Of a DNA stretch of 64,000 nucleotides, positions 20,215-22,499 are shown one piece after another. Origin of the DNA: Escherichia phage LF82-1; sequence record PV648359; one strand, 5' to 3'. Under the pieces are notes generated by a model. That model ran no database searches. It saw nothing but the letters and a program-made list of their open reading frames with translations, and was not told where the DNA came from. Each line of letters opens with the position of its first letter. Position 1 is the first letter of the stretch. Both the position numbers and the translations under genes were made by a program.

Positions 20215-20685
20215 TTAATCATGTTTCCACACCCCATCGGTATTTGACCAAAGTCGCTGATTATCTGATCCTCGCCACAGCTTTTTGGTCGGAAGATTTT
20301 TCTCATACTTCCCATCAATAATAACATCAACATATTTAAGCATTTTTAGTTGTTTAATATCTTCAAACTTATATCCTGTCCACAACCAAATGCTTTTATT
20401 GGGATAAAGATTTTTAATAGTTTGAACCACAGAGTGAATCACATCTCGGTTATCAGGATAGAGAGGGTCACCTCCGGTTATAGTCAATCCTTCTATATAA
20501 TCATTATTCAAACATTCAATTAATTGTTCTAGTGTTTCACCAGTGAATGGAATACCATTTCTAGCATTCCATGTTGATTTATTATAACACCCTTCGCATT
20601 TATGCAAACAACCTGTGACGAAAAGAACGACCCTACAACCAGGGCCATTCACAAAATCGCAAGGATAAAATCTATCATAATTCAT
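20215..20685 (-). CDS. nrdG: Anaerobic ribonucleotide reductase activating protein NrdG (radical SAM)
   Basis: 156 aa; CLHKCEGC cluster motif. Confidence 0.9.
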   Translation of the reverse strand: MNYDRFYPCDFVNGPGCRVVLFVTGCLHKCEGCYNKSTWNARNGIPFTGETLEQLIECLNNDYIEGLTITGGDPLYPDNRDVIHSVVQTIKNLYPNKSIWLWTGYKFEDIKQLKMLKYVDVIIDGKYEKNLPTKKLWRGSDNQRLWSNTDGVWKHD

Positions 20686-22499
20686 TGGTGTTTAACCCTA
20701 TGCATGATTTCTTTATTTTTGCCGAGATTAAATCCACGTTCGTTCGGGTTCCCCAAATAACCGCACGTTCTTCTTATGGTGTTCATCTTTTTAGGATCAG
20801 TTTCTCCACAAACTGAACAAACAAATCCATTTTCAGTAGGAGTCATCTCATGGGTACTTCCACACGTAAAACATTTATCTACTGGCATGTTAACACCAAA
20901 ATAATCTAAATGTTGTGCAGCATAATCCCACACGGCCTCAAGACCTTTTAAGTTATTTTTCATATCAGGAAGTTCAACATAAGAAATGTGACCACCTGTC
21001 GCAATGAAATGATATGGCGCTTCACGAGAAATCTTTTCAAACGGAGTAATATTTTCTTCTACTGAAACATGGAAACTATTAGTGTACCAGCCTTTATCAG
21101 TAACATCCTTTACACTTCCATATTTTTCTGTATCAAGTTTACAGAAGCGATAACAAAGGTTTTCAGCAGGAGTAGAATACAAGCTAAAAGCAAATCCGGT
21201 TCTTTCAGTCCACTGTTTAAGACGAGCATTCATTTTAGTTAAAATTTCTTGCCCAATATCACGACCGACAAGAATATTCAATTCGTGAATACCAATGTAT
21301 CCTAAAGACACTGAACTTCTACCGTTTTTAAATAACTCAATTATGTCGTCATCAGGTTTAAGACGAACCCCGAATGCACCTTCTTGGTAAAGAATAGGAG
21401 CAACAGTCGCTTTAACACCCTTTAAAGAACTAATTCTACACATCAAGGCTTCAAAACACAGATCCATTCGTTCATTAAATAATTCGATAAATTTCTGTTC
21501 ATTGAACTGTGTTCCAATATAAGAATCTAATGCGATACGAGGAAGATTCAGTGTTACAACACCAAGATTATTACGTCCATCAAGAATTTCATTACCAGTC
21601 GAATCTTTCCATACGCTCAAGAAACTACGGCAGCCCATTGGAGAAACTGGAACTGAAGAACCGGTAATAGCTTTATTATTCTTAACAGAAATAATGTCAG
21701 GATACATTCTTTTGCTTGCACATTCTAACGCAAGTTGTTTAATATCATAGTTCGGATCATCTTTATAAAGATTAACACCTTCTTCAACAAACATAACAAG
21801 TTTAGGAAAAATAGGAGTTATTCCATCACGACCAAGACCTTTAATCCGATTTTTCAGAATTGCCTTCTGAATCATTCGTTCAGTCCAATCGGTTCCCGTA
21901 CCAAATGTAATTGTTACAAAAGGCGTTTGTCCGTTTGAACTAAAGAGAGTATTTACTTCATATTCATAAGCTTGGAACGCATCGTATACGTCTTTTTCTG
22001 TTTTAGATTGGGCATAATTCAACGCATCAGCGATTTGCCATTTTTCTGCATCCTCAATATGTTTTGCATAGGTGCGTTTAACATAAGGAGAAAGAACTTT
22101 ATCGACATTCGCAAATGTAGTTCCGCCATACTGATGTGAAGCAACTTGTGCAGTAATTTGTGCCATAATTGCAGTAGCAACACCAATCGATTTAGGCGTT
22201 TCAATTTGAGCATTGCCTAATTTAAATCCATTCTCAAGCATCCCCTTTAAATCGACTAAACAGCAATTAGTAAATGGAAGAGCAGGAGAATAATCAATAT
22301 CATGCATATGAATGATTCCGCTTTCATGCGCATTCATAATAAAAGACGGGACCATATTTTTGGCAATGTGCTTAGACACAATACCAGCCATAAGGTCCCG
22401 TTGAGTTGGAAAAACACGAGAATCTTTATTAGCATTCTCGTTCAAAAGATCTTTATTAGTTTTATAAATTAATCCTTCAATTTCTTTTTCAATTTTCAT
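20682..22499 (-). CDS. nrdD: Anaerobic ribonucleoside-triphosphate reductase NrdD (glycyl radical enzyme), uninterrupted
   Basis: 605 aa; C-terminal Zn ribbon CFTCGS...CSVCG and glycyl-radical motif RRTCGYLG. Confidence 0.95.
   Translation of the reverse strand: MKIEKEIEGLIYKTNKDLLNENANKDSRVFPTQRDLMAGIVSKHIAKNMVPSFIMNAHESGIIHMHDIDYSPALPFTNCCLVDLKGMLENGFKLGNAQIETPKSIGVATAIMAQITAQVASHQYGGTTFANVDKVLSPYVKRTYAKHIEDAEKWQIADALNYAQSKTEKDVYDAFQAYEYEVNTLFSSNGQTPFVTITFGTGTDWTERMIQKAILKNRIKGLGRDGITPIFPKLVMFVEEGVNLYKDDPNYDIKQLALECASKRMYPDIISVKNNKAITGSSVPVSPMGCRSFLSVWKDSTGNEILDGRNNLGVVTLNLPRIALDSYIGTQFNEQKFIELFNERMDLCFEALMCRISSLKGVKATVAPILYQEGAFGVRLKPDDDIIELFKNGRSSVSLGYIGIHELNILVGRDIGQEILTKMNARLKQWTERTGFAFSLYSTPAENLCYRFCKLDTEKYGSVKDVTDKGWYTNSFHVSVEENITPFEKISREAPYHFIATGGHISYVELPDMKNNLKGLEAVWDYAAQHLDYFGVNMPVDKCFTCGSTHEMTPTENGFVCSVCGETDPKKMNTIRRTCGYLGNPNERGFNLGKNKEIMHRVKHQ

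Follow-up and report, generated by a model that had tools for sequence, protein, structure and literature searches.

An uninterrupted nrdD gene and a vacant intron homing site in a 64-kb region of Escherichia phage LF82-1

The large subunit of the class III (anaerobic) ribonucleoside-triphosphate reductase of Escherichia phage LF82-1 is encoded by nrdD, which occupies positions 20682..22499 (-) of a 64,000-nucleotide (nt) stretch of sequence record PV648359, the whole of which is referred to here as the window. The gene runs from its ATG start through 605 amino acids (aa) without interruption and is almost certainly the ordinary intron-less allele of a T4-like phage; no evidence contradicting this explanation was found. 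An initial annotation made from the letters of the window had noted that nrdD of phage T4 is split by a group I intron, and had proposed that the 605-aa frame is continuous here through its conserved regions and that the window contains neither an intron nor an open reading frame (ORF) for a homing endonuclease. We evaluated these proposals by comparison with spliced, intron-bearing and intron-less relatives, combined with searches for intron structures and endonuclease genes over the window.

The decisive evidence for an intron-less nrdD is base-for-base collinearity with the spliced T4 gene, rather than a covariance-model scan. In the T4 annotation nrdD is a join of two pieces that holds the gene for the homing endonuclease I-TevII, and its intron, used as a positive control for the Rfam group I model RF00028, scores 105.3 bits, which bears out the premise that the T4 gene is split; an HNH gene, mobC, is annotated between T4 nrdD and nrdG. 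Alignment of the window gene with the T4 nrdD span by blastn paired nt 1-536 with T4 1-536 and nt 539-1818 with T4 1572-2851. The T4 span is longer by 1033 nt, which is the T4 intron, and when the junction is placed exactly, exon 1 corresponds to gene nt 1-538 and exon 2 to gene nt 539-1818, the 1818-nt length of the window gene being that of T4 exon 1 plus exon 2. At the T4 junction exon 1 ends with GCTTATGAGT, the first intron bases are TAACGTAAG and the last are ACATTG, and exon 2 begins with ATGAAGTG. The equivalent of this insertion site in the window lies between gene nt 538 (window 21962) and gene nt 539 (window 21961) with 0 extra bases, and the sense strand reads GCTTATGAAT directly before the empty site and ATGAAGTAAATACTCTCTTTAG directly after it. 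Mapping of the junctions of both the T4 intron and that of the Mosigvirus phage F27 placed the empty intron insertion (homing) site at 21961..21962 (-). T4 nrdD spliced at nt 538 is translated through the junction as AYEYEVN, the same as the continuous translation of the window. Alignment with the T4 nrdD exons, which the initial annotation had put forward as a check, therefore shows exons 1 and 2 to be collinear with the window gene, with no base extra or missing.

The reading frame itself is equally clear. The ORF listing contains one ORF only across 20682..22499 (-), with 605 codons in 1818 nt, and because of this length in a gene of 36% GC content, together with its Pfam score, it is no chance ORF. 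The Pfam family NRDD (PF13597) matches residues 21-604 over profile positions 1-562 of 562 (572.3 bits, E = 1.5e-171, cut-off 26.2), and Gly_radical (PF01228) matches residues 481-586 with 90 bits. Aligned with spliced T4 NrdD, the window protein shows 98.5% identity over 605 of 605 aa and zero gaps, and its top match among solved structures is T4 NrdD in PDB 1H78 (1392 bits, residues 1-605 against 1-605), with four further T4 NrdD structures also matched (1H79, 1H7A, 1H7B and 1HK8). The frame is thus continuous through the conserved regions, as had been proposed. In the ungapped T4 alignment C79, C290, N311, C543/546/561/564 and G580 are all kept in the window protein, with G580 inside the motif RTCGYLG (the radical glycine motif RxCGY); 1H78 is a G580A mutant, and the window protein has the native glycine. 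From the structural literature on T4 NrdD, we take Cys79, Cys290 and Asn311 to be active-site residues and Cys543/546/561/564 to form the Zn(Cys)4 site. The predicted product is a full-length glycyl-radical class III ribonucleotide reductase in which the radical, thiyl and zinc-site residues are intact, and its identity to the characterised T4 enzyme implies that it would carry out oxygen-sensitive, formate-dependent reduction of nucleoside triphosphates. The window is an exact copy of positions 96001-160000 of Escherichia phage LF82-2 (PV648360.1), and that GenBank record annotates the same coding sequence (CDS) as 'anaerobic ribonucleoside reductase large subunit'.

Covariance-model searches of the window require more careful interpretation. 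The F27 intron served as a second positive control for RF00028 and scored 73.1 bits (gathering score 50) in a 1.2-kb scan, at positions 4306-4537 of the F27 locus (L003), and the same intron was missed by Rfam in a 19-kb scan at E <= 0.1. Rfam speed filters can lose a true group I intron in long scans, where negatives are unreliable for introns that contain ORFs, and we therefore relied on collinearity for nrdD and assessed the remaining sequence of the window by further tests. The group I scan, also put forward in the initial annotation, held up to the extent that RF00028 had zero matches in window positions 19800-23400 in a permissive search at E <= 10, and it proved unsafe as a test on its own. 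The scan of the whole window at gathering score returned two transfer RNAs (tRNAs) only and no intron, a negative that is insufficient alone, given that the F27 intron escaped a scan of this kind. Queries consisting of the T4 and F27 intron cores matched the window by blastn only at 21964-21997, through the exon-1 sequence that makes up their first 30-34 nt. Several weak candidates were set aside. Matches to small nucleolar RNA and microRNA families in the 3.6-kb region around nrdD were far under the gathering score and were attributed to chance, as were a plastid group II clpP intron match (22.9 bits against a gathering score of 140) and a fluoride riboswitch match (12.7 bits, far under its gathering score). 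The J8/7 motif GAAGATATAGTC, allowed up to 2 mismatches, had 8 matches against 6.7 expected, all of them with 2 mismatches, and these are noise.

The absence of introns and homing endonucleases extends to the remainder of the window. Annotated features cover 94% of its length; the largest unannotated gap, 49163-49538 (-), comprises 376 nt and shares 92% identity over 300 nt with T4 rnaC/rnaD, and the second-largest, at 165 nt, is too short for a group I core. Comparison by tblastn of all window CDSs with T4 22000-95000 showed gene-by-gene collinearity from gene 42 to gene 7 and no split or expanded window gene, the sole interruption being on the T4 side, in nrdD. Two high-scoring segment pairs for gp55 were rejected as a split gene, since they were caused by the chosen locus boundary. 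A 'thymidylate synthase' at 751-1467 was suspected to be td, an intron host in T4, and was identified from synteny as the homologue of gene 42 (dCMP hydroxymethylase); by the same criterion, neither td nor nrdB is within the window. Pfam detected no GIY-YIG, HNH or LAGLIDADG domain in 47 ORFs, a set that comprised the neighbours of nrdD and all CDSs of 100 aa or longer with no functional annotation or no T4 homologue, and PHROGs placed 10 ORFs, mostly without a Pfam match, in families of unknown function and none in an endonuclease family. Six-frame tblastn of the window with eight queries (segA, mobB, mobC, I-TevII, mobD, segB, segC and the F27 intron ORF) reached E = 0.28 at best, compared with 1e-14 to 1e-33 when, as a control, the same endonuclease queries were used to find their T4 paralogues. 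Six homing endonucleases are annotated in the homologous span of T4 (mobB, mobC, I-TevII, mobD, segB and segC), and in the synteny table all six positions are vacant in the window, at 15244-15314, 20682-20685, 31532-32005, 49978-49985 and 58626-58629 and at the nrdD intron site. The claim that the window has no intron or homing-endonuclease ORF was consequently upheld by Rfam, blastn, Pfam, PHROGs, tblastn and T4 synteny, all of which were negative. The position of mobD holds a 157-aa ORF (31532-32005) that is annotated as a membrane protein and has no Pfam family, no likeness to T4 homing endonucleases and no T4 homologue within the T4 spans compared.

An uninterrupted nrdD is also the common state among related phages. 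A probe of 200 nt with the insertion site at its centre matched 1142 phage records at 1213 places, the 71 extra places representing genomes in which the gene is split, so that approximately 6% of the relatives are interrupted and approximately 94%, T6 included, are not. Full-length copies of the T4 intron were present in 69 records, with an identity of 99% or higher in 25 and of ~66% in the others, and the F27-type intron was found at full length in 44 records; the number of split genomes from the junction probe agrees with the sum of ~25 T4-type and ~44 F27-type intron records. The F27-type intron represents a second nrdD intron lineage at the exact T4 site and occurs in both Mosigvirus (F27) and Tequatrovirus (JB75 and ELT1). 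In F27 it comprises 1044 nt (L003 3459-4502) between nt 538 and 539, shares 67% identity with the T4 intron and carries an ORF that is 56% identical to I-TevII, with a length range of 1044-1045 nt across F27, JB75 and ELT1. Records with this intron are usually annotated with two separate nrdD CDSs and a hypothetical protein. T4 has been described as an outlier with 15 homing endonucleases, most T4-like genomes carrying few, and the first hint of T4 intron mobility was the patchy occurrence of these introns in close relatives (PMC2988022). An uninterrupted nrdD is thus already known biology and the default among T4-like phages, the T4 intron is the exception, and the genome record is already correct; the low importance originally attached to the observation was apt.

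To characterize the state of the empty site, we compared positions -40 to +45 around it in 12 alleles. The window and the empty site of T6 differ at 2 of these 85 positions, and over exon-2 positions +1 to +45 the window, T6 and PhAPEC2 are the same. Exon 1 ends in GAG-T in five of five intron-bearing alleles (T4, RPN226, F27, JB75 and ELT1), and among the empty alleles it ends either in GAA-T (the window, T6, RB61 and CC31) or in GAG-T (PhAPEC2 and Shf125875). The presence of GAG-T in the intron-less Mosigvirus alleles PhAPEC2 and Shf125875 could be a neutral polymorphism or the footprint of a lost intron. Each intron type has its own exon-2 signature within +8 to +20, which fits the co-conversion of flanking exons in T4 intron homing (PMC2988022). 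The flanks in the window have none of the six T4-type and none of the three F27-type signature substitutions in the 12-allele comparison, and from +1 to +22 its exon 2 is the empty-site consensus shared by T6, RB61 and PhAPEC2. This pattern favours an allele that was probably never invaded, or one whose flanks were replaced along with any intron that was lost.

These flanks also bear on the alternative that an ancestral nrdD intron was precisely removed, through recombination either with a spliced complementary DNA (cDNA) or with an intron-less co-infecting phage. Such secondary loss would be in line with the 1044-nt intron at the same site in F27, a close relative that is ~96% identical across the locus, with the loss phase that forms part of the life-cycle model for homing endonucleases (PMC2988022), and with the GAG-T that PhAPEC2 and Shf125875 retain in common with intron-bearing alleles, which could be a footprint in those phages. 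The window itself, however, has the GAA-T exon-1 end, the exon-2 consensus from +1 to +22 and no signature of either intron type. Precise removal by way of cDNA would have preserved intron-type flanks, whereas recombination with an empty allele would be traceless. We consider secondary loss unlikely.

A different explanation of the vacancy is that the site resists cleavage, either through differences in the target or through hypermodification of the DNA that stops I-TevII-type enzymes. Between +8 and +20 of exon 2, 6 positions of the window differ from T4 and 3 from F27. I-TevII is reported by Bell-Pedersen and co-workers (1990) to cut at about +13/+15, a position that we did not use as evidence. 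The guide sequence GCTCATG, common to both intron types, pairs with TATGAGT, and the window has TATGAAT; the G-to-A change at -2 would produce an A:C mismatch in the P1 helix of the intron unless that position were co-converted. The alpha- and beta-glucosyltransferase genes of T4 are absent, and a sugar-nucleotide cluster found instead suggests another DNA modification; moreover, none of the six endonuclease sites of T4 is occupied in the homologous span. On the other hand, the flank is the common empty allele of T6, RB61 and PhAPEC2 and is nothing special to this phage, GIY-YIG homing endonucleases generally accept many target substitutions (PMC2988022 for I-TevI), intron gain did occur among Mosigvirus relatives, F27 for example, so that the lineage is not refractory, and vacancy is the majority state (~94%). 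Resistance to cleavage is accordingly very improbable as the explanation. Slightly less probable still is a broader form of it, in which the lack of endonucleases and introns over 64 kb goes beyond the small number usual in phages other than T4 and may reflect active protection, with a non-glucosyl sugar on hydroxymethylcytosine blocking I-TevII-type as well as seg and mob enzymes and the GAA-T mismatch in P1 adding to this, which would leave the nrdD site effectively immune.

Four considerations limit how far the interpretation of nrdD as an ordinary, never-invaded allele can be taken. A never-invaded history would be indistinguishable from loss by recombination with an intron-less phage in which the flanks were replaced too; the 12 alleles of the flank comparison are a small sample; ORFs shorter than ~90 aa were not scanned one by one for nuclease domains; and enzymatic activity of the window NrdD is argued from homology. 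The ordinary intron-less allele nevertheless remains our preferred explanation.

The genes on either side of nrdD are consistent with this organization. Downstream, nrdG (20215..20685, minus strand) encodes the putative radical-SAM activase of NrdD (Pfam Fer4_12 at 165 bits and Radical_SAM, 79% identical in aa sequence to T4 nrdG). The nrdG start codon and the nrdD stop codon share a 4-nt ATGA that was read directly from the sequence, and there is therefore no space for a mobC-like gene between nrdD and nrdG. Upstream, gene 49 (22496..22969, minus strand) encodes endonuclease VII, a Holliday-junction resolvase (Pfam Endonuclease_7 and Endonuc-dimeris, 88% aa identity to T4 gp49), in the same syntenic position as in T4, and its stop codon overlaps the nrdD ATG in a second directly read 4-nt ATGA. 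Its product is a recombination enzyme, not a homing endonuclease, and is the sole protein with an HNH-like fold in the window. The 49-nrdD-nrdG arrangement is a conserved operon with 4-nt ATGA overlaps on both sides of nrdD. The taxonomy given in PV648360.1 stops at 'Viruses'. The source is a T4-like phage, and its nearest named relatives, with ~95-96% identity across the nrdD locus, belong to Mosigvirus (APCEc01, mar005P1 and F27, among others).

Taken with the T4 literature, this organization suggests how the locus would function. The nrdD messenger RNA would need no splicing and would be expressed from the 49-nrdD-nrdG unit without RNA processing. By homology with the T4 enzyme, the protein would carry its radical on Gly580, generate a thiyl at Cys290 and bind zinc in a C-terminal Zn(Cys)4 site through C543/546/561/564, and activation of NrdD by NrdG would supply deoxyribonucleoside triphosphates in anaerobic infection. 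The locus can be regarded as an unoccupied homing site, most likely never invaded or else without trace of a T4-type or F27-type intron. In a mixed infection with an intron-bearing phage, cleavage of the window site is predicted, and repair from the donor would be expected to introduce the intron together with donor bases in the flanking exons.

Other features of the window are of separate interest. T4 has no counterpart of the block at 1746-5851 (-), which lies between DNA polymerase (gene 43) and the gene 42 homologue, the latter with only 25% identity to T4 gp42. The block encodes a U32-peptidase-like protein of 386 aa, a 'phosphoheptose isomerase' of 128 aa, a SIS-domain isomerase and a nucleotidyltransferase-domain protein of 561 aa whose kinase-like matches are weak and below threshold. 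Together with the absence of alpha-gt and beta-gt, this block suggests a different sugar modification of hydroxymethylcytosine, which we presume could be arabinosylation of the kind reported for RB69. The gene at 38378-38740 (-) encodes a protein of 120 aa that carries a glycyl-radical motif at its C-terminus (Pfam Gly_radical, 67 bits) and is the second glycyl-radical protein in the window besides NrdD; it shares 94% identity with T4 vs.6 (annotated as the autonomous glycyl radical cofactor GrcA) and is a 'hypothetical protein' in the LF82-2 record. Only two tRNA genes, Arg-TCT and Met-CAT, were found, at 49902-50056 (-), 3-6 nt apart depending on the tool, whereas the corresponding place in T4 has eight tRNAs interrupted by segB. 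Downstream of this pair is the homologue of rnaC/rnaD, the T4 small stable RNAs of species 1 and 2, which is unannotated in PV648360.1 and has no Rfam family match. Two ORF runs, 42060-45838 and 47614-49162 (-), have no homologue in the T4 spans compared and include a 318-aa DUF7275/DUF7277 protein (43757-44713) and a 228-aa phrog_1843 protein (42693-43379).

These results define the locus as a clean vacant homing site of the I-TevII type and as a potential recipient in intron-homing crosses. They also carry a caution on method, in that the absence of an Rfam hit on a long stretch needs the backing of collinearity with an intron-less or spliced reference.

In comparison with known systems, the closest functional parallel is nrdD (sunY) of T4, which after splicing has the same 605 aa, Cys79/Cys290/Asn311, Zn(Cys)4 site and RTCGYLG motif, and the same gene 49 upstream with a 4-nt overlap. 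T4 differs in having a 1033-nt group IA intron with I-TevII between nt 538 and 539 and mobC between nrdD and nrdG, both of which the window lacks. The nrdD of Mosigvirus vB_Eco_F27 is the same gene, with 98.8% aa identity after splicing and the same insertion site, but F27, like JB75 and ELT1, has its own group I intron (RF00028), an I-TevII-like ORF and a distinct exon-2 signature, and the window is without all three. In T6 (NC_054907.1), RB61 and the Mosigvirus PhAPEC2, nrdD is likewise uninterrupted, and these genes differ from that of the window only by scattered synonymous substitutions.

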